DNA of 64,000 nucleotides from a virus (IMGVR_UViG_2851938318_000001), one strand, 5' to 3'. Shown: positions 6,068-46,316, counted from the first letter of the stretch. A program made the numbers and translations. The notes: a model not told the origin generated them from the letters alone.

Positions 6068-6105
6068 TCATTGCGCTAATGGTAAGTATATACTTACCTA
6101 TTGAC

Positions 6106-20279: not shown

Positions 20280-20311
20280 CATTTCATATTTACCCCCTAT
20301 CTACTAAATCT

Positions 20312-20911
20312 ATGATGTGCTCACTTGTTAGAAAGGAGCACATCATGAGTTGGTTAAAAGAATTATCATTTGTTGACACCACTGGCGCTAAGAAAAATCA
20401 TTCTTTCTGGAAAGTCAGCGATCCTTCTGATTTTCTTGTTGGTGCTAATGCTGCTTTTGAATTGCTTAACTTTTATCAACGTTATCCTGAAATGAAACAC
20501 AGTCCACTCCTGTACAGAATAACAAACGATATGAATAGGTCTGGTTTATTATCAAGTGAGTCAGCGAAAGGCTTTTTTAGCAAAATTACGCCTCACATAT
20601 CATTCGATGCAGCAAACGAAATTGATTATCTATCCACAAAATCTCAAGAACAATTATCTGTGCCACCTGAGAAAAAAGAAAGACGAATTGCCAGCATTGA
20701 AAATATATCGAAAGAGCTTCGCACAACAACGTTGAGGCTGCTGAACTTTCTTACGCTACTTAATTGGATAGATGATCAAACATTGATTCCATCAACCGAT
20801 GCGTTGGATAACAGAGTCCTTAGGCTGAACAAAAAATCGCAATTTGGTTTTGTGTTCACCAAAAAAGGTGAAGATTTAATCAAAAGAAAATATAGATTAT
20901 TGAATGATTAA
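20312..20911 (+). CDS. hypothetical protein (AT-rich gene; likely start near 20345)
   Basis: 199 aa ORF followed by perfect 10-bp-stem hairpin at 20919-20946. Confidence 0.4.
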   Translation: MMCSLVRKEHIMSWLKELSFVDTTGAKKNHSFWKVSDPSDFLVGANAAFELLNFYQRYPEMKHSPLLYRITNDMNRSGLLSSESAKGFFSKITPHISFDAANEIDYLSTKSQEQLSVPPEKKERRIASIENISKELRTTTLRLLNFLTLLNWIDDQTLIPSTDALDNRVLRLNKKSQFGFVFTKKGEDLIKRKYRLLND

Positions 20912-21296
20912 TAGTCTACATGCAGGTGTATGAGAGCACCTGCATGTGACATTCATCACATTTTTGAATGTATATACCTTCGGCTGAAAAAAGATCTTGA
21001 TAGGCTGAATGATATTTGTAGGCTTCGCCTCCGAAGAAATTCGGAGGATATATGCGACAATTTATAAAAACGTGTGACCTAAGAAATATAGTAGATGATA
21101 TTGCATGTGATGAAATTAGCAAAAAAGAGAAGAACAAAAACGCCAATTAACGCTATCTACCTATAAATCTGAAGAGTTCAATAGGATACATATCTGAAAC
21201 ACGCCCTCGACAATACCAAAAAGATTTGTCGAGGGCGTCGGGCTTTCCCTATGTCTGAACGATTAAATTTTACAGCAATTAAATATTTTGTATATG

Positions 21297-22097
21297 TTAT
21301 TCTTCTGGTGGTACGACAAAATCGTCGAGCTTATTCTTTTCGTCCCGAAGCAACCTGATTTCTTCTTCTGTTATGCATTTGTCATAATCTGTTTGTTCAG
21401 AATGGCACAGCGCAACTGCGAATGGATAGCCGGTGTAAGACAGCCCTCTAACAGGTTCTAATTCACCGTTGTCTTTTTTCCTAAATTTGTAAAAGTCAGG
21501 AGTGTCATAATTGGTGACGCTAACAAGAGCATATTTATCATTTTCTCTTGCATACACTTCACTAACACCTCTCGATTCTCCCAACTCTCTACTCACATAT
21601 GTCGAATCACTTGCAGCATCAAACACAGCCTGACCTAATGGAGTTTTTTTTAAATCATCTATTTTCTCTTTTTCTTTCCTGATTTTAGATTCGTTTTCCA
21701 GATAAAGTTTCACACCATTTTCTTTACATGCTAGATTTTGGCGTTCAAAACGTAATCGTTCACTTGCCGAGTTGGTACTTTTATCCATTGTAACGAATAC
21801 AATCGGGTTACGTTCACGAACATCAAAGATGTGTGCATTGAATGCGGTCGCACCTGTATAGGCGTTCAAGACGTTTTTGCCATTCACCTCTCCACATACC
21901 ATATATGAATAGCTATTTTCACCTAACTGAATAGCTCGCATATTCGTGAACCGACCAGCATCAGGATCTAGCAGTGTAGAGCGAATATCCTTTTCAACTA
22001 GATTTATGACTCGCTCTTCATCAGAATCACAACCTGTTAATAGTAAAGCCGCTATTAACAATGCTAATGAGTATTTTTTATTCACCCCATTCTTCAT
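21297..22097 (-). CDS. lipoprotein (moron-like)
   Basis: signal peptide plus lipobox (LALLIAALLLTGC); AT-rich; convergent with flanking + strand genes. Confidence 0.6.
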   Translation of the reverse strand: MKNGVNKKYSLALLIAALLLTGCDSDEERVINLVEKDIRSTLLDPDAGRFTNMRAIQLGENSYSYMVCGEVNGKNVLNAYTGATAFNAHIFDVRERNPIVFVTMDKSTNSASERLRFERQNLACKENGVKLYLENESKIRKEKEKIDDLKKTPLGQAVFDAASDSTYVSRELGESRGVSEVYARENDKYALVSVTNYDTPDFYKFRKKDNGELEPVRGLSYTGYPFAVALCHSEQTDYDKCITEEEIRLLRDEKNKLDDFVVPPEE

Positions 22098-22199
22098 GAA
22101 ACTTATTCCATAATCAATTTTTGGTGGAATGTACGGTTAGTCTGTCTACGCATCATAGAGATGTATATAATGACCAAAAAAGACTTAAAAAGGTAGACT

Positions 22200-22721
22200 A
22201 TGGTTAAAGACATCACCTACGGCATACCGGCTGAAGTCTGGCCGCGAGACTACGAACATGCTGAAAACATACTTATGTTCTGGCGGAAGAACAACATTCC
22301 TGTAAGAGTCACGCTTGAAGACGGTCAGGTGTTTTGCATGTACGTTCAGGGGACAATGCCTTCCCGCAATAAGCTAGATTTATGCCCGCTTCCATATGAT
22401 AAAGAAAATCGTATAAGACTCCCACTTGAGCGCATTAGCACAATTGAATCAGGTGTAATCGATGGCATTGCTCGCGAGTTCAAAGGTAGGCTAACAATAC
22501 ATCCAGACTATGTTGACAATCAGCCATCACGCCGTGACTTTTTTGCGATATGTCGCAAGGCTTATCAAAACGACCAATCTATAAGGGTCTACATGGCAGA
22601 CGGTCGTGAAATAGAAGGGGTGTCAAGAGGCGTTGATGCTTGCCAGGTCACTCTTAAGTTAGAAGACGGCAGAAAAATACTTGTTTTCTTCGATTGGGTT
22701 GAACGAATCCTTCCTTTTTAA
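22200..22721 (+). CDS. hypothetical protein
   Basis: 173 aa ORF followed by hairpin terminator at 22725-22760. Confidence 0.45.
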   Translation: MVKDITYGIPAEVWPRDYEHAENILMFWRKNNIPVRVTLEDGQVFCMYVQGTMPSRNKLDLCPLPYDKENRIRLPLERISTIESGVIDGIAREFKGRLTIHPDYVDNQPSRRDFFAICRKAYQNDQSIRVYMADGREIEGVSRGVDACQVTLKLEDGRKILVFFDWVERILPF

Positions 22722-22913
22722 ATCTATAAGGGTAATAACCGGCTAAGTCCGGTTATTATTTTACATGCCATTCATTTAAAACTCTTTCAATGCTACGCTG
22801 TATAAATATATAAGGTTAAAAGCCTGAATTGATTATTTATTTAGGGAACACCTTCGACGATCTCGCTTTTATTTCTAGGACTTTCATCCCTGCAAAAAAT
22901 TTAAAAAAAACAC

Positions 22914-22941
22914 TTGCAATCTTTTTTCACGTATCGATAAT
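22914..22941 (+). promoter_or_regulatory. sigma70-like promoter (TTGCAA-16-GATAAT)
   Basis: -35/-10 hexamers about 70 bp upstream of 23008 ORF, within AT-rich intergenic region. Confidence 0.4.
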
Positions 22942-23007
22942 TGAACTCGTCGAAAGCGAGCTAGCTAACGACAGTAAAAAATAAATTCATTTTAATTTTT
23001 CGTAAGG

Positions 23008-23667
23008 ATGTCCATCATGGCTAACATTATCATTTCTAAAAAATCCATCATTGAAGCTGCTTCCATTGTATCCGATGAACTGCGCGAAAAAGCAGATCTG
23101 GCAACTCAAACATATAACGAACATTATAAAAATGGTACGCACACTAAAGCAGACAAAGCAAATATGCAAGCTGCGACCACTAAACTTGCTTACTTCATCA
23201 ACAACGTTGTAAACGCTGTTGAAGACGAAAAATTATGCTCTGTTTTCTACTATGCAATTAAAGCAAGCAAACAAGCGCCAGAAGTATTTTTCCGTGATGC
23301 AATGACTAATAGTTATTCACTGGAAAAACTGGTTTATCTGGTTAAATCCATTAAAGCTGGTAAATGTGTTTATTCCGTCGCTGATATGTCAGGATCTCGT
23401 GTATTCGCTTTAATCGATATGATTAACGACGAGATCGACACGTTCACCAATGGCGCTGTTTTCGATTTAATGAATGAAGCTAAAAAAGCGTGTGAAATTA
23501 AATTGGACGCTGGATATACTCAAGCCAACCAGTTGATCAATCTTTGCGAACGTCTCGGACTTGTTGAAAAAGTCAAAGGAGCTGGGAGCGCCAAAGCTGG
23601 TACGCAGCAATATCGCTTCATTAAAAATGATTTCTACAATTATTTAGCTGATGCTTTCAAAGCGTAA
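23008..23667 (+). CDS. hypothetical protein
   Basis: 219 aa AT-rich ORF with RBS taaggatg; terminator hairpin 23678-23700. Confidence 0.45.
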   Translation: MSIMANIIISKKSIIEAASIVSDELREKADLATQTYNEHYKNGTHTKADKANMQAATTKLAYFINNVVNAVEDEKLCSVFYYAIKASKQAPEVFFRDAMTNSYSLEKLVYLVKSIKAGKCVYSVADMSGSRVFALIDMINDEIDTFTNGAVFDLMNEAKKACEIKLDAGYTQANQLINLCERLGLVEKVKGAGSAKAGTQQYRFIKNDFYNYLADAFKA

Positions 23668-23677
23668 TTAATGGAAT

Positions 23678-23700
23678 CAAGCGCCCACTTTGGGCGCTTT
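23678..23700 (+). terminator. rho-independent terminator
   Basis: gcgcccactttgggcgc followed by ttt. Confidence 0.55.
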
Positions 23701-23920
23701 AAAGGAGCTTTCAAAAATGGTCAGCTATGACAAGATCCGCGCGGAATATCGCGCAAAGTATCGCGCTTATAAACTGGAATTAATCGATGATTTGATCGCG
23801 CAACGCGACCAATTAAATTTTACGTTTTCTGATTTGCTTAACAGTAAACGAGATTGTAAGCGTAAACGTGAATATTTACGTTTAAGCGCATTAATCGGAA
23901 AACTGCAAAATTCTATTTAA
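23690..23920 (+). CDS. hypothetical small protein (likely start 23707)
   Basis: RBS aaaggag precedes ATG at 23707 (MVSYDKIRAEYRAKY...). Confidence 0.4.
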   Translation: MGALKELSKMVSYDKIRAEYRAKYRAYKLELIDDLIAQRDQLNFTFSDLLNSKRDCKRKREYLRLSALIGKLQNSI

Positions 23921-23940
23921 TTTTTTTAAGGAGCTTAATC

Positions 23941-24168
23941 ATGGTTATTTTCATCTCTGGCGTAAATATCAATAATCATACTCTTGTTTATGATATTGCT
24001 GGTTTAGCTGGATATGCTCTAAGTTCTGAAGTGGTTGATGAAACAACGTTTAAAATAAACATCAATGACGTAGAACATAGAGCGCGCGTAGGAATCAATG
24101 AAGCTGATGTTACTTTAATGCTTCAAGAATTTTTAAACGCTGGCTTTAATATTCACTTAGAAAAATAA
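23941..24168 (+). CDS. hypothetical small protein
   Basis: 75 aa ORF with RBS aaggag; followed by two hairpin terminators. Confidence 0.4.
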   Translation: MVIFISGVNINNHTLVYDIAGLAGYALSSEVVDETTFKININDVEHRARVGINEADVTLMLQEFLNAGFNIHLEK

Positions 24169-27952: not shown

Positions 27953-28279
27953 TAATAACGCACAGGCGAAAAAGGATTTTATTCCGGTGAATGTGGTTTT
28001 GGCAGTGAGTTTTCAGGTTCAGTACCGAGTACACTTTTTACATTATTCTGATTTAGTGGCCGAAGGTGGCTGGTGGACAGAATAATCCTCTCCCCGAAAA
28101 CCTACTGAAATCGATTGTGACCCGCTGACTGTCTGGCACAATTACGCTGTAGCTGGGCATTCAGAGGGAATCCAGCGGTAAGCAAGTCCGCCTGCACGTG
28201 AGCGCCTCTCTTCTTCCCGCACATTGCAGGTGGGTAGCCGCAACTCTCCCTCTCGCTATACCGGTACGCCGCCGTTCCT

Positions 28280-28410
28280 GAACCGGCATTGAGCCTTTTC
28301 CCGAAATCCACACAGGCAACTCGACCGTTTCCCTGAAAACCTCCAGCCGTTCCCAAAGGCAACCCAGCCGTTTCTGTAGCGGGATGCAGCCTTTCCCCTG
28401 TATGGACCGA
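28280..28410. repeat. degenerate iteron-like array (CCGTTTCC units), second copy
   Basis: about 6 units: cgccgttcctgaacc, agccttttcccgaaa, cgaccgtttccctgaaaa, cagccgttcccaaagg, cagccgtttctgtagc, cagcctttcccctgta. Confidence 0.55.
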
Positions 28411-28559
28411 AGGCTGACCGTAGGGGTGTTACGGGGGATAAAATCAGGAGTTGAATAAATACGAAAAAGGAGGCGACCCCCCTCCTTCCCTCCCCACTTA
28501 TACATACCTGGCTTCTTCGCTATACATGTTGTGTTTTCTTCGTGTTTTATCTGTCTCAA

Positions 28560-29280
28560 CCTCTCTATAGGCGTTAATGCTCACACCTTCCAGAACGTTC
28601 TATACGGCGACTAATTCTGTTGGTGAATTGGGTGTGTTGTTCTCTCTGTCGGTGTAAATGGTTTCGTTAGTTTTGCGGTGGTTCTTCTGTGGGATGTTCT
28701 CGTCGTTTTGGTGATTGTTCTTCTCCGTGTATGGAGTAAAGGCAGGTGGGCGATTCCTTTCGTTATTGTGTTTGAGTTGTTTGTCTGGAGTGTGTGAAGG
28801 GCTTTTGTAGTTATTCGTGTATTGGGTAATGGCGTTTCCCGTGATTGTTATGTTTCGTGTCTTTTGGGATTGAGAGAATCCTTGCGGTTACAGGCTTCGT
28901 TGGGGTTTCAGTGATTCTGGTGTTTCTTCGCTGTTTGGGTAATGGCGTGTCGTGGGTATCGCGCGTATGGAAGTTTCGAATTGCCTGTGAAAGTTAGGTT
29001 GGTTGTCCGGTAGCCTGCCATAAAGAGGTTGGTTGTTTTTGGAATGGCATATGTGTTATTTGGTTGTTTTGTTATACCTGAAAATAAGTTGTTTATATGG
29101 TTGTGTAACGCAACGGGAGCGATTTTGAGCGTGTGTTTTTGTTGGTAGTGTGTTTGGTCGTCTGTGGTGAAAATTGGACGCTGTGGCGCTGTCTGCTGCG
29201 TAGAATTACGGGTATAAGCAGTGATGTGTGAAAACGTCAATTTTTTAGACCAAATCGGGTGAAAGCGTTGATGTTTCGTT
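28560..29280. other. ORF-free region with extreme GT (plus) / CA (minus) strand skew
   Basis: about 0.7 kb almost devoid of C and A on the plus strand; only low-complexity ORFs; promoter unit at 29290-29326 points into it. Confidence 0.5.
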
Positions 29281-29289
29281 GATCTGTTA

Positions 29290-29326
29290 TTCAGTTGTTT
29301 TCTTATTGGTATAAACAACTATAACC
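29290..29326 (-). promoter_or_regulatory. conserved early promoter/operator unit (drives GT-skew region)
   Basis: ttcagttgttttcttattggtataaacaactataacc. Confidence 0.45.
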
Positions 29327-29437
29327 TATTGATATTTAAGGATGTGATTGCAGGTATAGAATGGGGGTAGTGGCGATCAACGGATTCTTATAGAAAAGAA
29401 TCAAATTGTGACCGCCATTATCAATGAGTTGCAACCG

Positions 29438-30007
29438 TTAGTTGTTCAGATAAACATTTGGAACACGGACGTAGAAGTTCCTGTCGCCGGTAAGTTCCAG
29501 AGTAATGTTAATGTCATTACCATTGTCTAGTGTAGCCGTTGCTCTATAGAACTTATCCGTCACCTTGTCCTCTATTGTCACCTTCATACATTTTGGTGCA
29601 GTCGAACCGTTATTCTCTTTCAGAATAGTTGTCACGAGAGGGCAGGCTGCTTCTTCAAGAGCAACCTCGTCCTTGTGTGGGATGCCGATGAAGATAACCC
29701 AAGCCAGCGACGCAACGATTATGATAAATGGCACTCTGCTGCCTTTTGTAATAGTCGCGCGCTTCCAGAGATAGACAGGCAGGAGGAATACCCCCCATAG
29801 AATTGAAGGTGGTTCACAGCCAGACTCCGATAGAGCCATTCTGTCAGCTACTAACAAACCGATGGTAGTTACACCCCCAATTATAATAGCGTAATTGGTA
29901 TACTCTTCCGGCGATACTCCAAAGAAGAAAGGCATGAACGCTAGAATCCACGCATAAATGTTATTCAGAGGTTTTGTTTGTTGGTTCTGGGTTTCCATCA
30001 CATCCAT
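29438..30007 (-). CDS. integral membrane protein
   Basis: 189 aa with about 4 hydrophobic helices (e.g. IYAWILAFMPFFFGV, IIIGGVTTIGLLVA). Confidence 0.5.
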   Translation of the reverse strand: MDVMETQNQQTKPLNNIYAWILAFMPFFFGVSPEEYTNYAIIIGGVTTIGLLVADRMALSESGCEPPSILWGVFLLPVYLWKRATITKGSRVPFIIIVASLAWVIFIGIPHKDEVALEEAACPLVTTILKENNGSTAPKCMKVTIEDKVTDKFYRATATLDNGNDINITLELTGDRNFYVRVPNVYLNN

Positions 30008-30160
30008 TCCATCACATAAAAATCGCGTTTATATATTATCAATTTTCTCACTTGTATAACCTAAATACGCATCCGTTTATCAATCCACCTTCCACAAACA
30101 TCAGCTTTAGCTATGAAAAATAACAATCTCAAAGTGAAAACCATTATCATAGGATAACGA

Positions 30161-30346
30161 TTAGATGAGATGGTCTAATTCATCATCTATCATTGCTTTA
30201 ACACTTGAGTCATTAACCCCGTATTGATTTATGAACCGTTTCAGCTCCGGTGAAAACTGAAGGTAGATATCGTGAGCGTTTTTCACTGTAGGTTCAACGC
30301 CACGCATTTCAAGCGCCTTTAGTAGATATGAGTCTTCTTTAAGCAT
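30161..30346 (-). CDS. hypothetical small protein
   Basis: 61 aa ORF co-directional with neighbours. Confidence 0.3.
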   Translation of the reverse strand: MLKEDSYLLKALEMRGVEPTVKNAHDIYLQFSPELKRFINQYGVNDSSVKAMIDDELDHLI

Positions 30347-30382
30347 AAATTCTCCGTTGTCTAGTATGAAGCGATTGCCGGA

Positions 30383-30691
30383 TTACCATTGCCAGCACTC
30401 TAGCCCTTCAACGACCGGTGCACCACAATCAAAATGTACAGAGTCAAAGCCTACATCAAGTACTTTCTGAATGTTCGCAATCGCGCCCTCGGATATACCA
30501 TATCGACGCAACTCATCTTTCCAGTCATCGTCCTGTAACCCAGCGTGGACAATGCAACCGTACTCAATTTGTGAAACCCAATCCAGCTCATTGCTTGCGA
30601 TCATGAATCGGCGAGCATCTTCCTCTGATGTATGAGATGAGCTGATCAATGCCACCTGGTAGGCTTGGGTAATGTTCAACATTTCAACCAC
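30383..30691 (-). CDS. hypothetical early protein
   Basis: 102 aa ORF directly downstream of promoter unit at 30695-30727. Confidence 0.45.
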   Translation of the reverse strand: MVEMLNITQAYQVALISSSHTSEEDARRFMIASNELDWVSQIEYGCIVHAGLQDDDWKDELRRYGISEGAIANIQKVLDVGFDSVHFDCGAPVVEGLECWQW

Positions 30692-30694
30692 TCC

Positions 30695-30765
30695 AAAACA
30701 AGTTGTTTTCTTATGTGGTTTATTATCTCCATCAACAAAAGGCAGAAAACAAATTGTTTTAGGTA
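30695..30765 (-). promoter_or_regulatory. conserved early promoter/operator unit with upstream element
   Basis: aaacaagttgttttcttatgtggtttattatc ... aaaaggcagaaaacaaattgtt. Confidence 0.55.
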
Positions 30766-30796
30766 CTGTGTAAATCAGAAGGGATTGTGTCTATAT

Positions 30797-30823
30797 GAAA
30801 ATGCCCGGCGTGTTGCCGGGCAT
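30797..30823 (-). terminator. metG rho-independent terminator
   Basis: aatgcccggcgtgttgccgggcatt hairpin with U-run in minus-strand transcript. Confidence 0.7.
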
Positions 30824-30843
30824 TGCGAAGAGAGGTTGTTTAA

Positions 30844-32877
30844 TTACTTAACCTGGTGGCCAGGTTTAGCACCAGCATCCGGGCTTAACAGGAAGATATC
30901 TTTCCCGCCGGGGCCAGCAGCCATCACCATGCCTTCAGAGATACCGAAGCGCATTTTACGTGGTGCCAGGTTAGCCACCATAATGGTGTGACGACCAATC
31001 AGTGCCTGTGGATCTGGATAAGCGGAACGGATGCCTGAGAAGACATTACGCTTTTCACCACCGAGATCCAGCGTCAGGCGAAGCAGTTTGTCAGAACCTT
31101 CTACAAACTCTGCGTTTTCAATCAGCGCCACGCGCAGGTCAACTTTGGCGAAGTCGTCAAAGGTGATAGTTTCCTGAATCGGGTCGTCAGCCAGTGGGCC
31201 AGTTACCGGTGCGGCTGTGGCTTTCACTTCTTCTTTGGATGCTTCCACCAGTGCTTCAACCTGCTTCATATCGATGCGGTTATACAGTGCCTTGAACGGA
31301 TTCACTTTATGGCCCAGCAGCGGTTGCTGGATACCATCCCAGGTCAGTTCTGTATTCAGGAATGCTTCTGCACGTTCAGTCAGTTTCGGCAGTACCGGCT
31401 TCAGGTACGTCATCAGCACGCGGAACAGGTTAATGCCCATAGAGCAAATCGCCTGCAGATCGGCATCGCGTCCTTCCTGCTTCGCCACCACCCACGGAGC
31501 CTGTTCATCGACATAGCGGTTAGCCAGGTCAGCCAATGCCATGATTTCACGGATAGCTTTACCAAATTCGCGGCTTTCCCACGCTTCACCAATCACTTCA
31601 GCGGCATCAGTGAAGGTTTTGTACAACTGCGGGTCAGCCAATTCGCTTGCCAGCACGCCGTCAAAACGCTTGTTGATAAAGCCCGCATTACGAGAGGCCA
31701 GGTTAACCACTTTGTTCACGATATCGGCATTCACGCGCTGAACGAAATCCTCCAGGTTGAGATCGATATCATCAATGCGCGAAGAGAGTTTCGCAGTGTA
31801 GTAGTAACGCAGGCTGTCGGCGTCAAAATGATTCAGCCAGGTGCTGGCTTTAATAAAGGTGCCGCGAGACTTGGACATCTTCGCGCCGTTCACCGTCACA
31901 TAGCCGTGAACAAACAGGTTGGTCGGCTTGCGGAAGTTGCTGCCTTCCAGCATGGCAGGCCAGAACAGGCTGTGGAAGTAAACAATATCTTTACCGATGA
32001 AGTGGTACAGCTCGGCGGTGGAGTCTTTCTTCCAGTATTCATCGAAGCTGGAGGTGTCGCCGCGTTTGTCGCACAGATTCTTGAAGGAACCCATGTAGCC
32101 AATCGGCGCGTCCAGCCAGACGTAGAAATATTTGCCCGGTGCGTTCGGAATTTCAAAACCGAAGTACGGCGCATCGCGGGAGATATCCCACTGTTGCAGA
32201 CCAGATTCAAACCACTCCTGCATTTTGTTTGCCACCTGCTCCTGCAACGCACCGCTGCGGGTCCATGCCTGCAACATTTCGCTGAAAGAAGGCAGATCAA
32301 AGAAGAAGTGTTCGGAATCACGCATTACCGGCGTAGCACCAGAAACTACCGATTTCGGCTCGATCAGTTCAGTAGGGCTGTATGTCGCGCCGCAGACTTC
32401 ACAGTTATCGCCGTATTGATCCGGCGCTTTACATTTCGGGCATGTGCCTTTCACAAAACGGTCCGGCAGGAACATGCCTTTTTCCGGGTCGTACAGCTGA
32501 GAGATGGTGCGGTTTTTAATAAAACCGTTCTCTTTCAGGCGAGTATAGATAAGCTCGGACAACTGACGGTTCTCTTCGCTGTGCGTCGAGTGATAGTTGT
32601 CATAGCTGATGTTAAAGCCTGCAAAATCAGTCTGGTGTTCCTGACTCATTTCGCCAATCATCTGTTCCGGTGTGATACCAAGCTGCTGTGCTTTCAGCAT
32701 GATCGGTGTGCCGTGGGCATCGTCGGCACAGATGAAATTAACCTCGTGGCCGCGCATTCGCTGGTAACGAACCCAGACATCAGCCTGGATGTGCTCCAGC
32801 ATATGGCCGAGGTGGATTGAGCCGTTAGCGTACGGCAGCGCGCACGTCACCAGAATTTTCTTCGCGACTTGGGTCAT
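30844..32877 (-). CDS. metG: methionyl-tRNA synthetase (E. coli chromosomal type)
   Basis: protein from [31 protein letters not shown]... with KMSKS motif, recognised as E. coli MetRS; ORF-track start 33006 is upstream extension. Confidence 0.95.
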
Positions 32878-33034
32878 AGTAGGCATTACTTCTTTGTAGT
32901 GAAAAGGGGCTTGATAGTAACAAAATGGCCTTATGTCTGCCATGTGATAACAGCATTTCTCATAAATGATTAAATGCCGTAGCTGGAGTACACTACAAGG
33001 CGACAATTGCGCAAATTAAAATAAAGGAGACGGG

Positions 33035-34135
33035 ATGAGCGAGTCCAAATCGCCGGATGCCCTGAGAGCAATGGTAGCCGGTACGCTGGCTAATTTTCAG
33101 CACCCAACCCTGAAACACAATCTGACTACGCTTAAAGCGTTACACCATGTTGCGTTGATGGATGACACACTGCATGTCGAACTAATCATGCCTTTCGTGT
33201 GGAATAAGCCTTTTGAAGACCTGAAAGAGCAATGTAGTGGTGATCTGCTCCGTATCACTGGCGCAAAGGCTATTGACTGGAAGCTGTCGTACAACATTGC
33301 CACGCTTAAGCGCGTCAAAAACCAACCAGGCATTAATGGCGTGAAGAACATTATCGCCGTCAGCTCAGGCAAGGGCGGCGTTGGTAAATCCTCCACGGCG
33401 GTAAACCTGGCACTGGCGTTGGCTGCTGAAGGTGCGAAAGTTGGTATTTTGGATGCCGATATCTACGGGCCATCAATTCCAACCATGCTTGGCGCGGAAA
33501 ACCAACGTCCAACCTCACCGGACGGTACTCACATGGCACCGATTATGTCTCATGGACTGGCAACCAATTCAATTGGTTATCTGGTAACTGACGACAATGC
33601 GATGGTGTGGCGTGGTCCGATGGCGAGCAAGGCGTTAATGCAGATGTTGCAGGAAACTCTATGGCCTGATCTGGACTATCTCGTTCTCGATATGCCGCCG
33701 GGTACTGGTGATATTCAGCTGACGCTGGCGCAGAACATTCCTGTAACTGGTGCTGTTGTGGTAACTACGCCGCAAGATATCGCGCTGATCGATGCGAAGA
33801 AAGGCATTGTGATGTTCGAAAAAGTCGAAGTGCCGGTACTGGGTATCGTCGAAAACATGAGTGTGCATATTTGCAGTAACTGCGGTCATCACGAGCCAAT
33901 TTTTGGCACCGGTGGCGCACAGAAGCTGGCCGAGAAATACAACACGCAGTTGTTAGGCCAAATGCCACTTCATATCTCTCTTCGTGAAGATCTGGATAAC
34001 GGAACACCAACCGTTATTAGTCGTCCAGATAGCGAATTTACGGCTATTTATCGTGACCTCGCAGATCGCGTTGCTGCCCAAATGTATTGGCAAGGTGAAG
34101 TAATACCTGGCGAAATCGCATTCCGCGCAGTGTGA
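33035..34135 (+). CDS. apbC: Fe-S cluster carrier ATPase ApbC/Mrp (E. coli chromosomal type)
   Basis: P-loop AVSSGKGGVGKSS and CxxC (CSNCGH); divergent from metG as in the E. coli chromosome. Confidence 0.93.
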   Translation: MSESKSPDALRAMVAGTLANFQHPTLKHNLTTLKALHHVALMDDTLHVELIMPFVWNKPFEDLKEQCSGDLLRITGAKAIDWKLSYNIATLKRVKNQPGINGVKNIIAVSSGKGGVGKSSTAVNLALALAAEGAKVGILDADIYGPSIPTMLGAENQRPTSPDGTHMAPIMSHGLATNSIGYLVTDDNAMVWRGPMASKALMQMLQETLWPDLDYLVLDMPPGTGDIQLTLAQNIPVTGAVVVTTPQDIALIDAKKGIVMFEKVEVPVLGIVENMSVHICSNCGHHEPIFGTGGAQKLAEKYNTQLLGQMPLHISLREDLDNGTPTVISRPDSEFTAIYRDLADRVAAQMYWQGEVIPGEIAFRAV

Positions 34136-34141
34136 TAAAAA

Positions 34142-34160
34142 GGTGGTGCAATGCACCACC
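34142..34160. terminator. hairpin between convergent apbC and humD-like gene
   Basis: ggtggtgcaatgcaccacc perfect stem. Confidence 0.5.
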
Positions 34161-34172
34161 TAAACAGTTCTC

Positions 34173-34562
34173 CTACATCACAGGACAATCATCAAACTCG
34201 CCACTTCTTGCGTCGTTGATAATGTGAGTGATCACACCAAACACGGCATTGCTGCCCGTGCATCCATCATCATCCTTTGGCAATGCTTCCTTCTTACCAG
34301 TTCTTAAATCCTCCAGATGCTGACGTGGATACTTCCGGTATCTTTTTACGCGATATTCCCCATCCAGAGCACATACAAGAAGAGATCCATCAACAGGAGT
34401 GAGTGAGGAATCGACCACCAGCAATGCACCCTGCAATATTCCCTCACGATGATGGCTGTCTGCCGCCCTCATGAAGTAGGTCGCTGAAGGATGTCTAATT
34501 ATCTGCTGATCAAGAGAAATACGGCTCTCAGCATAATCCGCCGCAGGAGAAGGGAAGCCCAT
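34173..34562 (-). CDS. UmuD'-like protein (HumD-like, no UmuC partner in window)
   Basis: starts GFPSPAADY...HPSATYF (UmuD' core); begins at the position of the UmuD cleavage product. Confidence 0.7.
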   Translation of the reverse strand: MGFPSPAADYAESRISLDQQIIRHPSATYFMRAADSHHREGILQGALLVVDSSLTPVDGSLLVCALDGEYRVKRYRKYPRQHLEDLRTGKKEALPKDDDGCTGSNAVFGVITHIINDARSGEFDDCPVM

Positions 34563-34578
34563 AATACTCGCCTCTTAA

Positions 34579-34598
34579 TACTGTATATACATACAGTA
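34579..34598 (-). promoter_or_regulatory. LexA (SOS) box
   Basis: TACTGTATATACATACAGTA, 1 mismatch from consensus CTGT-N8-ACAG box, 17 bp upstream of humD-like ATG. Confidence 0.7.
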
Positions 34599-34897
34599 TA
34601 TGTTGAAGCTATATATTTTTGAACTCTATCTCTTAAAAAAGATGTTAATAAGATGCTAACTATTGAAAGGCATAAATATATACAATTCCAACAAACGTTA
34701 TTTTTAACAAATTTTTTCTCTCTGTTGACTTTTGCGAAAGCCTTGTCTGGCCTAAATTGCGCGGAAGCTACTTTTTCCTTCCTGAGTTATCCACAGAGTT
34801 ATGCACTTGCATGCATAACCTATACACACTATCTTAATTCGCAAGACACTGATGTTGCGGTATTGAAGGTTCATTGGGTTAAAAATAGACATTAAAA

Positions 34898-34926
34898 AGC
34901 CCAGTTGACTAGGCTGGGCTTTTTAA
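34898..34926. terminator. bidirectional rho-independent terminator
   Basis: aaaaagcccagttgactaggctgggcttttt. Confidence 0.6.
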
Positions 34927-35224
34927 AAGGAAACAGAGTTTGCGGCTCTGTTCCTGAGCCATAAGTATCTGGCGACTGAATTAAGATTAACCGAATGTAC
35001 TGGATTCATCAAGAAACGTTGAGTGGTCATACCAGGTAATAATGACCATTTACTAAACATCGTTGTTCTCAAAGAAGATTTAAGTCCAGGTTTTTGGTGA
35101 CTCTAAAACCTTACCTTAACTCGAAATCGTGCCGTAAGTATCTGGCGACTACAGATATTGCAACTGCAAAGGCAAGCCCAAAGGTATTTGCAGCTAGGCG
35201 CGATAAAACTAAGTGAGGCCTGTT

Positions 35225-35308
35225 ATGGTTAACTTACTGTTCAAAATCGTGCCGCCGATGTTCGCGATTATCAAAGCGATCATTGAGTACGTAAACCAGC
35301 GTCCATAA
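35225..35308 (+). CDS. small hydrophobic peptide (27 aa) candidate
   Basis: SD gtgagg then ATG; MVNLLFKIVPPMFAIIKAIIEYVNQRP; hairpin terminator downstream; upstream 16-bp direct repeats. Confidence 0.25.
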   Translation: MVNLLFKIVPPMFAIIKAIIEYVNQRP

Positions 35309-35363
35309 CGCTAGTTGCTACAGGCCCCATCAAGAGCATGGGGCCTCTTTATCGTACTATTGC

Positions 35364-35990
35364 TTATTTTTTACGGACTGAGTTGTTCACTGCTCTGGCA
35401 ATCTTCTCCCGCAATTGCTGCGTTCCGTGGTACTGAACCGCAATATCTCTCAACTCGTTCACCAGTTCTCGAATCTGGTGATCTTTAAGCTCATTATTTG
35501 GGTGATGGGTAACAACTCTGGTTAATTCACCCTTGTCTTTTGCTCTTACGTATGCAGCTCTTGTGCATTCGACCCATGTATTACCGCCTACATTAACTTC
35601 GTAGATTAGGCTGGACTTATCTGTCAATTCGGAACAAATACGGGCCGTGGTCTGGCAACTAGAGCATTCGCAGTTATCGCGGAAACCGTGATCTACCGGT
35701 CGAGAAAGAGGTTTAACTTTTTCATCCAACTTCATCACAGCATCGTGATAAGCGTTCCAGCCGTCATCTTTACCAAGTTGATAAATCTCTGAAGGCTCCA
35801 TGTAGTCTATATCGCAACCTTCTTCATCCGATCTATCTGGTCGCTTCCCTGGTAATCGCTCATAAAAACGATTTCTGTCTCGACGTTCGGCTCTCAGTGC
35901 TAACGCAAGAAGTTGCTCAAGCGAGGTATTTGCACCAGCAATAATTTCATTGAGAATATCTTCTGTGAGATCTTTCGCTACCGTGCTCAT
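35364..35990 (-). CDS. hypothetical protein (Cys-rich)
   Basis: 208 aa ORF with several CxxC-like pairs. Confidence 0.4.
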   Translation of the reverse strand: MSTVAKDLTEDILNEIIAGANTSLEQLLALALRAERRDRNRFYERLPGKRPDRSDEEGCDIDYMEPSEIYQLGKDDGWNAYHDAVMKLDEKVKPLSRPVDHGFRDNCECSSCQTTARICSELTDKSSLIYEVNVGGNTWVECTRAAYVRAKDKGELTRVVTHHPNNELKDHQIRELVNELRDIAVQYHGTQQLREKIARAVNNSVRKK

Positions 35991-36370
35991 TTATCTCTCT
36001 CAGTATGTTGCGATGGCGTAAATTTGACGACATCAAATATTTTGGATGGCATCAACTTTATCCGCGAGCTTAGTTCGGCTCTTCTCTGTAATGCGGTTAA
36101 TAATGTTTTCGTTCTGACGCCTTCGTGTATCCTCATCCCTGGCACAAGAACTACATCGCAGGGGAGATGCTCAGGTGACAAATCATTTTGGGCATCGCTA
36201 ATCAGTCGTGTAATCTCTCTTTCAAGCCGACCGCCTAGCTCTGTTTTAGTGCAATGTTCTGACCAATCGCCAGCCTCAAGCAGCGCGAGAATGCTTAAAA
36301 TATCGTCCAATAGATCAGTGGTATTATCGACTTCCTTCTGAAACTCACCGGCTACTGATTTATGCATCAT
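35987..36370 (-). CDS. hypothetical protein
   Basis: 127 aa ORF, 4-bp overlaps with both neighbours. Confidence 0.4.
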   Translation of the reverse strand: MMHKSVAGEFQKEVDNTTDLLDDILSILALLEAGDWSEHCTKTELGGRLEREITRLISDAQNDLSPEHLPCDVVLVPGMRIHEGVRTKTLLTALQRRAELSSRIKLMPSKIFDVVKFTPSQHTERDK

Positions 36371-37284
36371 TCGTCATCCTCATCCGAGTCATCCTCATCA
36401 CAGGATGAGAGTAGTGGGTTAGTCATTCGCCCTACTTGAGTGGCGTAGCCACGCCGACAGAGATTGCGCAGCACACTGTATATTTCGAACATCTCGGTTC
36501 GTTCATCGCCAACATCAAGCTCAGATGCTATAGCGTGGCATTCAGTCGCGAGAGCCGATATTTTCTGAAATAACTCTGCATTATTCACTGTTCGACTCCT
36601 GCGGCGTTCTGGTAGTGGCATCCAGTGTGTGACATTGCTAATCAGACCATATTCATTAGTTTGAGGATGGTTGCCGTTATCGTCTCCGTATTTAAGACTC
36701 TCCATAAAGCCATAATGCCTATCACCATTAACGCTCACAAAGCCGTAATAAGCTGGTATAACGCCGATCTCACACGTAATCAGCAAAGGAAAACCAGTTC
36801 TCCAATTTAACTCGCCGATTACAGGCATTCGCTCACTACAGCTTATCCAACCATCCTTAATGCAATTATCTTGACTCTGAAGCATAGCGGCACGACAGGC
36901 GTTCCAGCCTCTCACCTCTGCAATAGCGGCAACAGCATCAACCGCGTACATGCTAAGAGGATTAGGCATTGGTTTTTCTTCCGGTACTACTGGCACTGGA
37001 GGGGCGGCGTATACTTCAATTGTCCCATTATCAATAGGCCATTCTCCATCCTTGAGGTAGTCACTTGTGCCGTCAACTTGCTGTTCTGCAATGTGGAATG
37101 CACCTATTGGTTTTGCCTCAAGCGAGGCCAGTGCAATTCGTGCCAGTTTTAGATCTCGTGCAACCATCTCAATAACAACTTTGCAGTCCGCACCTTCTTT
37201 ACTAACACGTCCTTTCAAGTCTTCCAGATAACTAACGCTTTCGCGTGCATGGGAGATTAACTGTTCTTTGGTTAAGGTGGTCAT
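36367..37284 (-). CDS. hypothetical protein with DUF551-like C-terminal region
   Basis: C-terminal segment ...THWMPLPE resembles DUF551 family of lambdoid early-region proteins (from memory). Confidence 0.4.
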   Translation of the reverse strand: MTTLTKEQLISHARESVSYLEDLKGRVSKEGADCKVVIEMVARDLKLARIALASLEAKPIGAFHIAEQQVDGTSDYLKDGEWPIDNGTIEVYAAPPVPVVPEEKPMPNPLSMYAVDAVAAIAEVRGWNACRAAMLQSQDNCIKDGWISCSERMPVIGELNWRTGFPLLITCEIGVIPAYYGFVSVNGDRHYGFMESLKYGDDNGNHPQTNEYGLISNVTHWMPLPERRRSRTVNNAELFQKISALATECHAIASELDVGDERTEMFEIYSVLRNLCRRGYATQVGRMTNPLLSSCDEDDSDEDDE

Positions 37285-37505
37285 TAGGCAGCTCTCTCAA
37301 CAACAAGCAATTCGTCGTAGTCATAATCCGTTTCGGAACCATCCGTACCGAACAGAGTCACTTTGTCACCTTCCATCCAGAAAGATTTAACCGCACATCG
37401 TTTGCCTTTAGATGTTATGACCACATCACCTGGGGTTACATCTTCAGCGCGAACTTCTACTGTTCTCATAATGCTGACCCTCTTTGGTGAAAACGCCTGA
37501 TGCAA
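37284..37505 (-). CDS. hypothetical small protein
   Basis: 73 aa ORF. Confidence 0.3.
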   Translation of the reverse strand: MHQAFSPKRVSIMRTVEVRAEDVTPGDVVITSKGKRCAVKSFWMEGDKVTLFGTDGSETDYDYDELLVVERAA

Positions 37506-38010
37506 TACTGTTTATGATGCTGTCAGTACAGGGAGTAGAAAGCTGGGCATCTCCAGCTATTTTCATGACTTCGACATTCGCATATCGAATACCGAGGTGT
37601 ATCAGACCTGCTATACCTGACTTAAGTCGAACATTTTCCATAAACAGATCCTTTTCCCGCTGTTTAACGGTCTCCAGCTCAACACGCAGTTTCTCAAGCG
37701 TTAGGGCCATCTCTACGTTCTCCTGCTCAAGACGTCGGATGTGTTGCTGTCTTTTATCCAGTTCGTCCAGCAGTGCAATCACATCGGGATCACTATCATC
37801 AACTACTGTTACGCGTGATTTTTCATAATGTTCGTCTGCAAAAGTACGCCCTATCTTAAAATATCCGTCATCACTCTCACCGGAACAGGCATAAACAACA
37901 TGTGCTCCAGATATGCGCTGTATTGACATTTCCTCGCCACAAACAGAGCATTTAGGCGCTGGTTTTGGTGAATAACGTTCACGTAACGTCAGGTAGTAAA
38001 TCTCATTCAC
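37444..38010 (-). CDS. coiled-coil protein (Ea22-like?)
   Basis: N-terminal Cys pairs plus central coiled coil (LDELDKRQQHIRRLEQENVEMALTLEKLRVELETVKQREKDL). Confidence 0.35.
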   Translation of the reverse strand: MNEIYYLTLRERYSPKPAPKCSVCGEEMSIQRISGAHVVYACSGESDDGYFKIGRTFADEHYEKSRVTVVDDSDPDVIALLDELDKRQQHIRRLEQENVEMALTLEKLRVELETVKQREKDLFMENVRLKSGIAGLIHLGIRYANVEVMKIAGDAQLSTPCTDSIINSIASGVFTKEGQHYENSRSSR

Positions 38011-38600: not shown

Positions 38601-38981
38601 CTAATTGCCGTATAAAATGGGTTGAGGTGCTTGCCAGTAAGCTCCACCGTCCCATGTGAACCCCATGCGAATAAGAGTGTTTATTGCGGCTTTGGTAGAC
38701 TCTGATTCGACGCTGACTTTTCGAAACTCTTGAACCTCTTTCGCCAACTTGTATGTAATTGTGCAGGGGACGATTGCAGCCCAGCCTTTCTCATGACTGT
38801 TAATGACCATCTGGATGTGACCATCCAGAATAGGTTGATCAGGCATGTTATTGAAAACGTCTGCCTGTTTTTGAATGTGAAGAAAAAGCCTTGCCAGCTC
38901 CATTTGCTCACTACGAGACAAGGGATTATCAAGAGGGCTTTTTGCAAAAGCTGCTATACGCTGTGCATCAATGCCAAACAT
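38601..38981 (-). CDS. hypothetical protein
   Basis: 126 aa ORF. Confidence 0.4.
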   Translation of the reverse strand: MFGIDAQRIAAFAKSPLDNPLSRSEQMELARLFLHIQKQADVFNNMPDQPILDGHIQMVINSHEKGWAAIVPCTITYKLAKEVQEFRKVSVESESTKAAINTLIRMGFTWDGGAYWQAPQPILYGN

Positions 38982-39685
38982 CAGCGCACCTCACCATCTT
39001 TATGGCTGGAGTTAACTTCCGTCATTAAATGTCTGACGTAATCGACAAGAGAGCCGCCTGGTGGAATCTGGCATTCCTCAACTAACTGGAAGTAGATATC
39101 CGCTGCATTACGTGTATTGCTACCCGCGCATATTCTTTCTTCCCGAAGTGCATGAAGCTCGTTGATCAAACGGTCACACTCTCCGTTACGCTGATCCACA
39201 ACAGCCTCAAGTTCTGCGACGCGTTCACCTGGCGTCTTACCTTCTTTGCGTTGGATGGTAACGACGAAATCGCCAATTGCAGGGACGTTGTAATCCAGCT
39301 CAAGGTAGTTTTTGGCACCGCTGCGGACGAACTCACCCGCGAACATGGTGGCGAACATCGCAGAGGCCACTTCGCCGTTGAAAAGTGACTCCAGATCTAA
39401 CGGAGTCCCGGCAGCAAGAGCCTCTTTTGCTGTATCCATTGCATCCATGAACCGATCAAACTCACTAGCGCGCTTTTCCAGGTCTTTCCATTGCTCGCTC
39501 CAACGTTTGGCAACGAAGTCTATGAATGTTTTCGCGGATTCATCAAAATTCCCCTCAAACTTAACGATGCCTTTATCAATAATGATCTGGCCTACCGCAT
39601 CCTCTGCATAACCTTTCAATGTAAACTTGAAAGGAAAATCAGAATGGCCTGTGACGTTAAAATGCTCTAACTGGAGGTTGTTCAT
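38981..39685 (-). CDS. hypothetical protein
   Basis: 234 aa ORF, start adjacent to AT-rich palindrome. Confidence 0.4.
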   Translation of the reverse strand: MNNLQLEHFNVTGHSDFPFKFTLKGYAEDAVGQIIIDKGIVKFEGNFDESAKTFIDFVAKRWSEQWKDLEKRASEFDRFMDAMDTAKEALAAGTPLDLESLFNGEVASAMFATMFAGEFVRSGAKNYLELDYNVPAIGDFVVTIQRKEGKTPGERVAELEAVVDQRNGECDRLINELHALREERICAGSNTRNAADIYFQLVEECQIPPGGSLVDYVRHLMTEVNSSHKDGEVR

Positions 39686-39746
39686 GTGTTTTTCTCTTAT
39701 CGTTTAGTTACTACATTCTTACACAAATTAAGTAAGTATTTACCTA

Positions 39747-41432
39747 TCATTTAACGCGTTTGAAAACGTATACGCTGACTGTGATCCCGGTATCTTCAAA
39801 CTCGTTGGTAAACGACTTCCCTCTGGCATAAACGTAATTATCCATCGTCATCCAGTCCAGTATTGGCGCAGTGCCCGGCAATACTGCTACAAGACGCCCT
39901 CCGACTTTCAGATGCCCCAGCGCAGCAAGCGTGTGTTCTCTATGACGACCAAGCGAGTACGGCGGGTTCATAACGATTTTGTCGAACTGATAACCTGCGT
40001 TGTCCTCAGACCACTTTATGAAGTCGCAGCAAATCGTGTTCGTATACCCTTTTCCACGCAGGATATCAGCGAAGAGAGGTGCGATTTCTATGCAAGTAAC
40101 ATCTTCCAGATCGGCGTTAATATAGGCCAGAAGATCCCCACGTCCGGCTTGAGGCTCCAACAGCTTCTCACCAGGCTTCAATTCAGTGGCTCTGGCAACG
40201 TACTCAGCAATCAAGCGTGGGGTAGGGTAGAACTGGTGTGATTTTGTATCCGGTATTAAACCGGTAGCCACAATCGTATTTAGCGTATGGCCGATGTCAT
40301 ACGGGAACTGCCAGTGCTTTTTCTCCTGCACGCCGCCAATGAAGCTCAGTGTGCGCTCAAGCTCTTCCACCTGCGACTTCTGGAGAGCTGAATCAGAGAA
40401 GTACCATACGCCTTTGTCTTTGCTTAATCGCCCGTCACGAAGCGCAGTGCGAACCGGCACGGAGATCGTCTTCTGGATTAACCCGAACTGCTTTGGTGCC
40501 CGTGTTTTTGGCGCGGTGCGACATGGCGCGGGGATTGCAGCAGGCATACTGTAAGCCAGCACCTCATTCAACTTCCAGGCCACGTCAGGATGTATTTCAA
40601 AGTGAACGTTGCCGTTCTTGAACATCTTCACGCGCATTAGATTTCCATCGACGTTCATCCAGTCACCGGTCTGGCAGTCGTTTGCCCGATACGCAGCTGA
40701 TAGCACCTCAGCAGTGCGGTTGATGGTAATAAATTCTTTGTGCGCGAAGAAATGAAGCAAGACACGCAGATCGTCGATATAGTCCTCTTTGCGATAGTTC
40801 ACACTAACGCTGTCCCGCCAGAAATCAGAAATGCAGTCAGCGATTATCAGACGTTCGCTGAAACCGTTTGTCTTATTTGTCTTGTGCGCAGGACTCAGCG
40901 CCTTAAACAAGCCATACACGCGCTCAGAGAGATATTTGTGCCTGTCATTCAGCAAATTAAGCATCGTGGGTATGACCGTTTCTGCTTTGAACTCCGGTAC
41001 ACCAACGAACTCTTTAACCTTCATCTGGTAGCCGGTTCTGTCAGTTTTGATGACTTCCTGTTTGCCCTCTATAAACTGCTCGCGCCACTCATCTCGACGG
41101 GAAGCAGGCATGATCAGCAAAACGTTAGTCATGTCCGTGACCTTCCTCCAGTACTCGGCCCAAATATTCTGTTTCACCCATTCCAGATCGACTTTATCCA
41201 ACCAACCTCGATTTAAACGCGAGCGATCTTCATCTGGTCGATGGTTTAGTCTCAGCAGGCGATTAATCATGTTGTGGCGTTCGTCGCCATAAACGAAGTC
41301 GTGTACCTGATACATGAAGGCGATCTCTTTCTCGCACTCGGCCACAATTTCGTGGATGACGTTCATTTCCTGCCGATAGTCGATAGCAGTGTTTGAGTTG
41401 GCATCGTCGATGATGGAAAGGGCTGTATTCAT
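39747..41432 (-). CDS. DNA N6-adenine methyltransferase with large N-terminal domain
   Basis: motif I LEPQAGRGDLL followed by motif IV NPPYS near C-terminus. Confidence 0.6.
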   Translation of the reverse strand: MNTALSIIDDANSNTAIDYRQEMNVIHEIVAECEKEIAFMYQVHDFVYGDERHNMINRLLRLNHRPDEDRSRLNRGWLDKVDLEWVKQNIWAEYWRKVTDMTNVLLIMPASRRDEWREQFIEGKQEVIKTDRTGYQMKVKEFVGVPEFKAETVIPTMLNLLNDRHKYLSERVYGLFKALSPAHKTNKTNGFSERLIIADCISDFWRDSVSVNYRKEDYIDDLRVLLHFFAHKEFITINRTAEVLSAAYRANDCQTGDWMNVDGNLMRVKMFKNGNVHFEIHPDVAWKLNEVLAYSMPAAIPAPCRTAPKTRAPKQFGLIQKTISVPVRTALRDGRLSKDKGVWYFSDSALQKSQVEELERTLSFIGGVQEKKHWQFPYDIGHTLNTIVATGLIPDTKSHQFYPTPRLIAEYVARATELKPGEKLLEPQAGRGDLLAYINADLEDVTCIEIAPLFADILRGKGYTNTICCDFIKWSEDNAGYQFDKIVMNPPYSLGRHREHTLAALGHLKVGGRLVAVLPGTAPILDWMTMDNYVYARGKSFTNEFEDTGITVSVYVFKRVK

Positions 41433-46155: not shown

Positions 46156-46316
46156 AAAATCGATTTTAAAGCGTCTGGGAAGGGGTTCTAGTGGATTCTG
46201 TAGTGATGTTCAGGTCTGGAGTCTCTGATACAAAACAGCCTGCTTCCGTATATTAATAATTAATATGTAGTTATTTATATATACAGAAGCAGGCTAATTA
46301 CAGACGCCAGAACAAA

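Follow-up and report, generated by a model that had tools for sequence, protein, structure and literature searches.

Phage-plasmids of the SSU5 supergroup, whose type members are the Salmonella phage SSU5 and pHCM2, have been reported from a substantial proportion of multidrug-resistant Shigella sonnei, and pWPMR2-like elements of this kind are common in S. sonnei and in Escherichia coli CC131, CC23 and CC73 (bioRxiv 10.1101/2025.09.12.675607). PMC12452169, which cites Tam et al. 2024 (medRxiv 10.1101/2024.10.27.24316207), associates a multi-copy, variable phage-plasmid metG, the gene for methionine-tRNA ligase (MetRS), with multidrug-resistant S. sonnei, and states that its expression gives rise to a subpopulation predisposed to third-generation cephalosporin resistance. 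Persistence rises when metG is perturbed, the described lesions being G263S/S264F, deletion of ETIT 569-572 and a C-terminal frameshift (PMC11004401). Here we analyze a 64,000-nucleotide stretch of viral DNA (IMGVR_UViG_2851938318_000001; the whole stretch is called the window, and positions are counted from its first letter), in which metG and a divergent apbC (mrp), encoding an iron-sulfur (Fe-S) cluster carrier ATPase, form a cargo cassette within the phage-plasmid pRM9131-1. We rely on published work for expression, copy number, the formation of virions and the phenotype of antibiotic survival; anatomy, boundaries, distribution, purifying selection and recombination were worked out here.

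Cyrano (OV696614; pLF82 of adherent-invasive E. coli strain LF82) is a demonstrated phage-plasmid: it is SOS-inducible, produces virions, responds 39-fold to ciprofloxacin induction and is present at 5.5 copies per chromosome (PMC9928086), whereas pRM9131-1 is known here from sequence, and virion formation by it is predicted from Cyrano. The two are 97.5% identical over window 30383-35000 and differ in sequence left of 30383 and right of ∼36860; Cyrano carries its MetRS (CYRAN_100) and ApbC homologue (CYRAN_99) in the same order, beside an S24 peptidase. In uninduced Cyrano, CYRAN_99 is transcribed 9-fold above the element background (PMC9928086, Table 1 and S1 Table). The authors of that study named CYRAN_99 (OV696614 4153-5253) a moron and listed it as ‘septum site-determining protein MinD’, a misleading annotation for what is an ApbC homologue; they did not recognize it as ApbC and did not discuss the MetRS.

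The S. sonnei plasmid p38 (NZ_CP099775.1) has the same backbone type and cargo, with a metG-apbC-humD block 97.7% identical to that of the window, an identical ApbC and a MetRS that differs at one residue. The window differs from the pWPMR2-like S. sonnei elements in its host, which is a bovine E. coli and not Shigella. SSU5 and pHCM2 share the gene order and the backbone on both sides of the cassette. The Escherichia chromosomal metG-apbC locus resembles the cassette in its divergent order and full-length products, and differs in its unrelated flanks, a mostly unalignable intergenic region, and DUF4132 and yehE neighbours that are absent from the window. Public records already annotate the cargo, and metG on phage-plasmids has been described before (PMC12452169; bioRxiv 10.1101/2025.09.12.675607); our additions are modest, comprising the exact limits of the cassette, its age and recombination pattern, the discordant ancestry of its two genes, and strong selection on apbC, a gene absent from discussion in the metG-centred literature available to us.

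A metG-apbC cassette in an SSU5-type phage-plasmid

The window is 100% identical to plasmid pRM9131-1 of E. coli RM9131 (NZ_CP028430.1), a circular, non-mobilizable record of 117 kb with an IncFIB-type replicon, isolated from cattle faeces. The record carries phage structural genes (terminase, portal, major capsid, tape-measure and tail) together with maintenance and replication genes (ParB, a DnaB-like helicase, primase and ligase), and the backbone on both sides of the cassette is syntenic with SSU5: the alignment spans window 28238-30763, SSU5_095/096 correspond to 38981-41432, and the methyltransferase SSU5_095 lies at 39747-41432. Because SSU5 synteny, structural genes and replication genes occur together on one circular record, pRM9131-1 is, as judged from its gene content, a siphovirus phage-plasmid of the SSU5 supergroup, kin to pLF82/Cyrano and the S. 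sonnei pWPMR2-like elements, and not a chromosomal prophage.

An earlier note on this DNA had described full-length E. coli housekeeping genes metG and apbC, with native terminators, lying between a phage gene with a conserved promoter unit and a humD-like phage gene, with the same phage motif on both sides and with neither insertion-sequence (IS) ends, att-like repeats nor an integrase at the junctions, in something other than a prophage sitting in a chromosome. The last point agrees with the SSU5-type flanks, and the presence of both full-length genes is borne out. The gene metG (30844-32877, minus strand) encodes 677 aa plus stop, and its product matches NCBIfam NF001100 with 1019.6 bits (cut-off 587) over residues 4-677; the C-terminal tRNA-binding/dimerization domain matches TIGR00399 with 163.2 bits (cut-off 116.65) over residues 543-677. 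It is thus a full-length MetRS of the bacterial dimeric MetG type (NF001100/TIGR00398 plus TIGR00399), with intact HLGH (residue 22), KMSKS (333), zinc-knuckle CPKC...CEVC (145-161) and ETIT (569-572) motifs. Aminoacylation of tRNA-Met and tRNA-fMet by this enzyme is predicted, with indirect support from the ratio of nonsynonymous to synonymous substitution rates (dN/dS) of 0.013 among plasmid alleles. The gene apbC (33035-34135, plus strand) encodes 366 aa plus stop; its product is a full-length ApbC/Mrp family member (NF008669, 759.3 bits, cut-off 348) that preserves GKGGVGKS (residue 112) as its deviant Walker A motif and CSNC (residue 280) as its cluster-binding CxxC motif. The identification as housekeeping genes therefore stands, and the attribution of the alleles to E. 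coli does not: in nucleotides, metG is 94.6% identical to its K-12 counterpart, and apbC about 82-82.6%.

The cassette occupies 30760-34172 (3413 bp). These limits follow from the relative pTB212, in which a DUF4145 gene fills the same slot, because homology between pTB212 and the window stops at 30759 and restarts at 34173. The GC content of the segment is 0.50-0.52, compared with ∼0.43 in the flanks. A repeat search found no direct or inverted repeat pairs bracketing 30760/34172, and the genes on either side code for a DUF5983 protein and for HumD, so that the segment does not have the form of a transposon, IS or integrase island, in line with the earlier note.

The left neighbour (30383-30691, minus strand) encodes a DUF5983 C-terminal domain (Pfam PF19419, 48.9 bits); it is the homologue of SSU5_104 and the last conserved phage-plasmid gene on that side. 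Its promoter unit, too, was correctly described. The predicted promoter/operator unit (30695-30760) consists of two 17-nt arms, each with AAACAANTTGTTT, in an inverted repeat that is 94% complementary, the palindromes lying at 30696-30708 and 30747-30759. Both SSU5 and pTB212 have kept this unit (that of SSU5 is 82% identical to window 30696-30763), which is the left edge of the conserved backbone. The window contains 13 copies of AAACAANTTGTTT, where 0.45 would be expected. Copies lie to the left and to the right of the cassette, as previously noted, and none falls within it; the sites span 15025-55363 (for example 15025, 27436, 30696, 30747, 43078 and 43807), often precede minus-strand genes, and look like the operator of a phage-plasmid regulator.

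On the right, humD (34173-34562, minus strand; 129 aa; NF051876, 219.8 bits) encodes a UmuD'-like translesion-polymerase subunit, and its stop codon starts 37 bp past that of apbC, exactly as the earlier note had it. It is not ancestral backbone: SSU5 has unrelated small genes (SSU5_097-103) in this interval, without metG, apbC or humD, and the humD genes of P1, P7 and D6 have 83-85% nucleotide identity to that of the window. By sequence comparison, humD is a module common to P1-type and SSU5-type phage-plasmids. A perfect LexA (SOS) box, CTGTATATACATACAG, read from the sequence, lies upstream of humD at 34581-34596. The SOS-box consensus is CTG-N10-CAG. Together with the P1/P7/D6 identity, this box points to an SOS-regulated humD module common to both phage-plasmid types.

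Comparison with chromosomes, which the earlier note had suggested, located the limits of homology at 30843/30844 and 34131-34136, practically at the stop codons of the two genes; this was so for K-12, E. albertii, Citrobacter, Enterobacter and every other chromosome sampled. The left 84 bp and right 37 bp belong to the cassette and match no sampled chromosome. Each of these margins contains a hairpin. The hairpin 3' of metG (30793-30824, minus strand) resembles an intrinsic terminator, with a 10-bp stem, a 5-nt loop and then UUUUCAUAU; its free energy is -19.1 kcal/mol (z-score -5.8), and it is not homologous to the region downstream of K-12 metG. By folding, a hairpin with a perfect 9-bp stem (34141-34161) separates apbC from humD, which converge on it; its free energy is -15.8 kcal/mol for the plus strand and -15.3 for the minus strand. 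It has an A-run before it and, on the humD strand, a U-run after it, which is the shape of a bidirectional terminator; pTB212 has no such hairpin beside humD. Because no sampled chromosome matches them, the two hairpins could not be shown to be the native terminators of the earlier description. An Rfam search of 28000-38000 for structured RNAs or riboswitches gave no match at an E-value of 0.1 or better.

The divergent intergenic region (32878-33034) is 157 bp long, compared with 131 bp in K-12, and presumably holds the promoters of both metG and apbC. Only its first ∼47-60 bp beside metG align with Escherichia chromosomes, and among plasmid alleles it has the lowest density of single-nucleotide polymorphisms (SNPs).

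The cassette is widespread. In PLSDB, the metG-apbC-humD block was found across the full 5 kb query in 164 plasmids, and 200 records hold at least 80% of the cassette; the whole cassette occurs in about 200 plasmids at 94.8-98.0% identity, from E. coli, E. albertii and Shigella of many sources and many countries. Four phage records contain it; those closest to the window are Cyrano, two CMS-2020a records and PhiR41_1, the last deposited with K-12 MG1655 as host. Of the alleles compared, that of the window diverges most: its identity to other plasmids across the cassette does not exceed 98.0%. A set of 5,426 complete E. coli genomes contains 213 matching plasmid records at ≥95% identity, a carriage of ∼4%, and the best chromosomal match to cassette alleles is 90.8%. 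A match over most of the metG-apbC query is present in 5,425 of these genomes, with 5,531 chromosomal matches; because nearly all of them keep most of the chromosomal locus, carriers are merodiploid.

Several database records labelled as phage or plasmid were rejected as independent captures. ‘Acinetobacter phage MD-2021a’ (CAKLQF020000011.1) is a chromosomal contig with dcd, pfs and emrB, and a 232 kb Klebsiella ‘plasmid’ (OW969824.1) and a 301 kb Salmonella ‘plasmid’ (CP075030.1) have native chromosomal metG-apbC synteny; mislabelled records of this kind would inflate counts of mobile metG. A separate observation concerns Pseudomonas phage Y5 (OQ572407.1, 92.6 kb, unannotated), which encodes at 21130-23148 a full-length MetRS 65.6% identical to that of the window. 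This could be an independent phage-borne copy or another mislabelled record.

Ancestry, selection and recombination of the two genes

To place the alleles, we compared each gene with its chromosomal counterparts. The window metG differs from that of K-12 with a synonymous divergence (dS) of 0.26 and a dN/dS of 0.024 (98.8% aa identity), and from that of E. albertii, at 92.9% nucleotide and 99.3% aa identity, with a dS of 0.39 and a dN/dS of 0.010. The eight changes from the K-12 protein are all conservative (S112T, S151A, S275T, V276S, S319T, V442I, R538K and A554T). E. albertii MetRS has the same residue at five of the eight sites and also differs from K-12 at 276, where it has Thr; A554T is the exception. 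At residue 276 the window has Ser, while other plasmid alleles that depart from K-12 there have Thr. The apbC gene is about equally distant from K-12, E. albertii and Citrobacter (about 82% nucleotide and ∼94-94.5% aa identity, dS ∼1.45-1.9, dN/dS 0.020-0.025), the values for K-12 being 94.5% aa identity and a dN/dS of 0.025. A protein search with ApbC found nothing closer than ∼95%, except one Logan entry of 396 aa that is 100% identical over 98% of the query.

Neighbour-joining trees of the two genes disagree, which indicates that metG and apbC have different histories. In the metG tree, the plasmid alleles join K-12 and E. albertii falls outside (98% bootstrap); in the apbC tree, K-12 and E. 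albertii group together with the plasmid alleles outside (99%), the latter being monophyletic (100%) and sister to Escherichia (90%).

Selection on both genes is strong. Both reading frames are intact in all 11 plasmid alleles compared, which have diverged to a maximum pairwise dS of 0.29 in metG and 0.33 in apbC, with mean dN/dS of 0.013 and 0.015, respectively. The ApbC protein is identical in five plasmids whose genes lie 24-32 synonymous changes apart; more generally, the MetRS sequence varies among plasmids while ApbC hardly varies.

SNPs among plasmid alleles cluster in blocks, which indicates recombination among alleles. In pEc2-51408, the only plasmid in which a conversion tract is visible, metG nucleotides 800-1500 (∼700 nt) are nearly identical to K-12, and this tract is direct evidence for conversion of metG from the host chromosome. 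Recent conversion was rejected as an explanation for the full discordance between metG and apbC: the window metG is uniformly ∼94-95% identical to K-12 and not patchy. We infer a single old capture followed by purifying selection on both genes, with metG occasionally homogenized by the host copy and with apbC probably now too diverged for recombination with the chromosome. The cassette is an old, diversified, recombining cargo module under selection, and not a recent capture from E. coli.

Role of the cassette and competing explanations

We consider it probable that the cassette is a host-benefit moron of an SSU5-type phage-plasmid: an old, recombining, Escherichia-like capture whose extra MetRS and ApbC raise antibiotic survival. 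Our inferred account of how the cassette was captured, why it behaves as a moron and how it acts in the cell is as follows. The cassette, in which complete metG and apbC genes keep the divergent order of the chromosome around an intergenic control region of their own, with a terminator-like hairpin closing each side, would have entered the variable accessory region by illegitimate recombination with the chromosome of an Escherichia-like bacterium, an event that is old as measured by substitutions. It would then have spread among related phage-plasmids through homologous recombination in the conserved flanks, with the plasmid metG occasionally overwritten in part by that of the host. As a moron, it would be dispensable for the phage cycle, lie outside the phage operator network and be expressed in the plasmid state. 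Since the cell keeps its chromosomal copies, it would receive several extra doses of MetRS and ApbC; extra or variant MetRS may disturb the charging of Met-tRNA, and translation, in part of the population and so raise antibiotic survival, as has been claimed in print for phage-plasmid metG in S. sonnei, with the benefit going most likely to the host and hence to the element. On the question of dispensability, the cassette is absent from SSU5 and replaced by the DUF4145 gene in pTB212; on that of autonomy, hairpins flank the cassette and AAACAANTTGTTT is absent inside it.

Several observations weigh against this proposal. A consensus sigma-70 scan of 32878-33034 found no site, and in LB the Cyrano metG (CYRAN_100) is weakly transcribed, ∼1.6-fold above background (PMC9928086). 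The known persister lesions, namely G263S/S264F, the ETIT deletion and the C-terminal frameshift, are absent from the window MetRS, which looks wild-type, its differences being mostly states common to E. albertii, and a mechanism built on a ‘defective allele’ is difficult to square with the strong purifying selection. The antibiotic-survival claim for phage-plasmid metG is second-hand, being taken from citing papers. An account based on metG alone leaves the equally strong selection on apbC unexplained. Finally, a donor scan of genome contigs found no chromosome closer than 88.8% across the segment, among 80 retained loci that included E. albertii and many genera and did not include E. fergusonii, E. 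marmotae or E. ruysiae.

An extension of the moron proposal concerns apbC; we offer it tentatively, as a possibility that we would not yet favour. Here apbC would be an equally selected payload, the better expressed of the two in Cyrano; the capture would predate the split of E. coli and E. albertii or derive from an unsampled Escherichia-like lineage, and metG would have been pulled towards E. coli by repeated conversion from host chromosomes. The phenotype attributed to metG would then depend in part on ApbC, through Fe-S delivery and the redox or metabolic state, and the phage-plasmid would act as a long-lived reservoir of essential-gene alleles exchanging with its hosts.

Among alternatives to the host-benefit moron, the one that survives best, although we regard it as unlikely, is that the cassette serves the phage: on the model proposed for the aminoacyl-tRNA synthetases of large phages, MetRS together with element tRNAs would sustain the initiation and elongation of translation in the lytic phase, and ApbC would feed Fe-S clusters to replication enzymes of the phage or the host. 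The element does carry four tRNA genes (Asn, Tyr, Thr and Ser) and further host-like enzymes (RNase HI, glutaredoxin and DNA ligase), and the strong purifying selection on both genes fits such a service. However, none of the tRNAs found on the element is a tRNA-Met, MetRS is already abundant in the host, and SSU5 and pTB212 are otherwise complete and lack the cassette. Its regulation also points elsewhere, with the phage operator motif absent from the cassette and the Cyrano apbC transcribed in the uninduced plasmid state.

Plasmid-borne extra aminoacyl-tRNA synthetase genes can confer inhibitor resistance. This precedent, set by the isoleucyl-tRNA synthetases (IleRS) MupA and MupB, would cast the plasmid MetRS as a bypass or decoy target that some natural inhibitor or toxin directed at MetRS does not affect, to the protection of the host or the phage-plasmid, and the variation of MetRS among plasmids beside a nearly invariant ApbC is in keeping with it. 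The likeness lies in a second synthetase gene on a mobile element that alters the antibiotic response. MupA and MupB, however, are divergent, inhibitor-insensitive paralogues, whereas the window MetRS is an ordinary housekeeping equivalog that is 98.8% identical to that of K-12 and scores 33 bits with the MupA/MupB models. The few conservative differences from K-12, mostly found also in chromosomal E. albertii MetRS, and the dN/dS of 0.013, with no sign of positive selection, also speak against a bypass target, which in addition leaves apbC without a role; moreover, the effect reported for metG in PMC12452169 is one of survival and persistence, not of target insensitivity. We therefore judge this explanation distinctly improbable.

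Two further explanations are more improbable still. A piece of chromosome acquired by accident and merely tolerated would bear no mobility signature, as here, and would suit a neighbourhood rich in imports (the P1-type humD and lambdoid Ea22/eaa pieces); such a passenger is very hard to reconcile with reading frames intact in 11 of 11 alleles despite dS of up to 0.3, with a dN/dS of ∼0.014, and with retention in ∼200 plasmids from many hosts and countries. An addiction by complementation, in which the plasmid copy lets chromosomal metG decay and the element becomes indispensable, could in principle stabilize the plasmid, metG being essential, and is about as improbable given that all but one of the complete genomes still contain most of the locus.

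The earlier note had offered a chimeric assembly or an engineered construct beside capture of a host locus, and had allowed that the flanks might be chromosomal neighbours of metG/mrp. Only capture stands. The DNA is not simply chromosome, since in K-12 the locus lies beside a DUF4132 gene and yehE and the flanks in the window are SSU5 backbone. A chimera or construct, which has nothing in its favour beyond the oddity of housekeeping genes within phage DNA, can be dismissed with near certainty, since the same junctions recur in ∼200 complete plasmids and four phage records assembled independently in different laboratories and the alleles differ from every E. coli chromosome.

For genome scanning, housekeeping genes within phage DNA can thus be genuine, ancient, selected cargo and not assembly error. 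An extra essential translation gene on such an element is reported to raise antibiotic survival and favour later resistance, so that recognition of the cassette matters for surveillance. The limits of the cassette, the selection on both genes, their discordant ancestry and the conversion from the host could guide work on mechanism; they leave the overall picture unchanged.

The variable region and other features of the element

The interval around the cassette is a hotspot of imported DNA. To the right of humD, 260 bp of the window (36596-36855) are 97% identical to the lambdoid phage HK140. Near this stretch lies a gene of the Ead/Ea22 family (37447-38010), which is more imported lambdoid material. 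The right-hand neighbours differ in other relatives, which have a der GTPase gene or a polysaccharide deacetylase gene together with that of a GNAT acetyltransferase, and two further relatives have type I restriction-modification genes beyond humD. In pZ1323HEC0016-2 (NZ_CP148383.1), a full-length der (5628-7100), encoding the ribosome-biogenesis GTPase EngA, follows apbC in the place of humD, and so adds a third gene of housekeeping type to such elements.

A reading frame of 61 aa (30164-30346, minus strand), lying two genes left of the cassette, has a Pfam match to the T7 gp5.9 RecBCD inhibitor. This match is below threshold (E-value 0.006, 16.9 bits versus a cut-off of 24.5), and chance may well explain it.

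The other host-like genes of the element encode RNase HI (rnhA), the glutaredoxin GrxA and a DNA ligase; sites of these genes and of the tRNA genes are at window 44723-45370 (minus strand) and, outside the window, at 46284-46841 and 48102-48347 of L095. A stretch of low GC content (0.37-0.39, compared with ∼0.47 elsewhere) lies at 20001-24000, and its genes are hypothetical apart from one annotated ‘repressor of phase-1 flagellin’.

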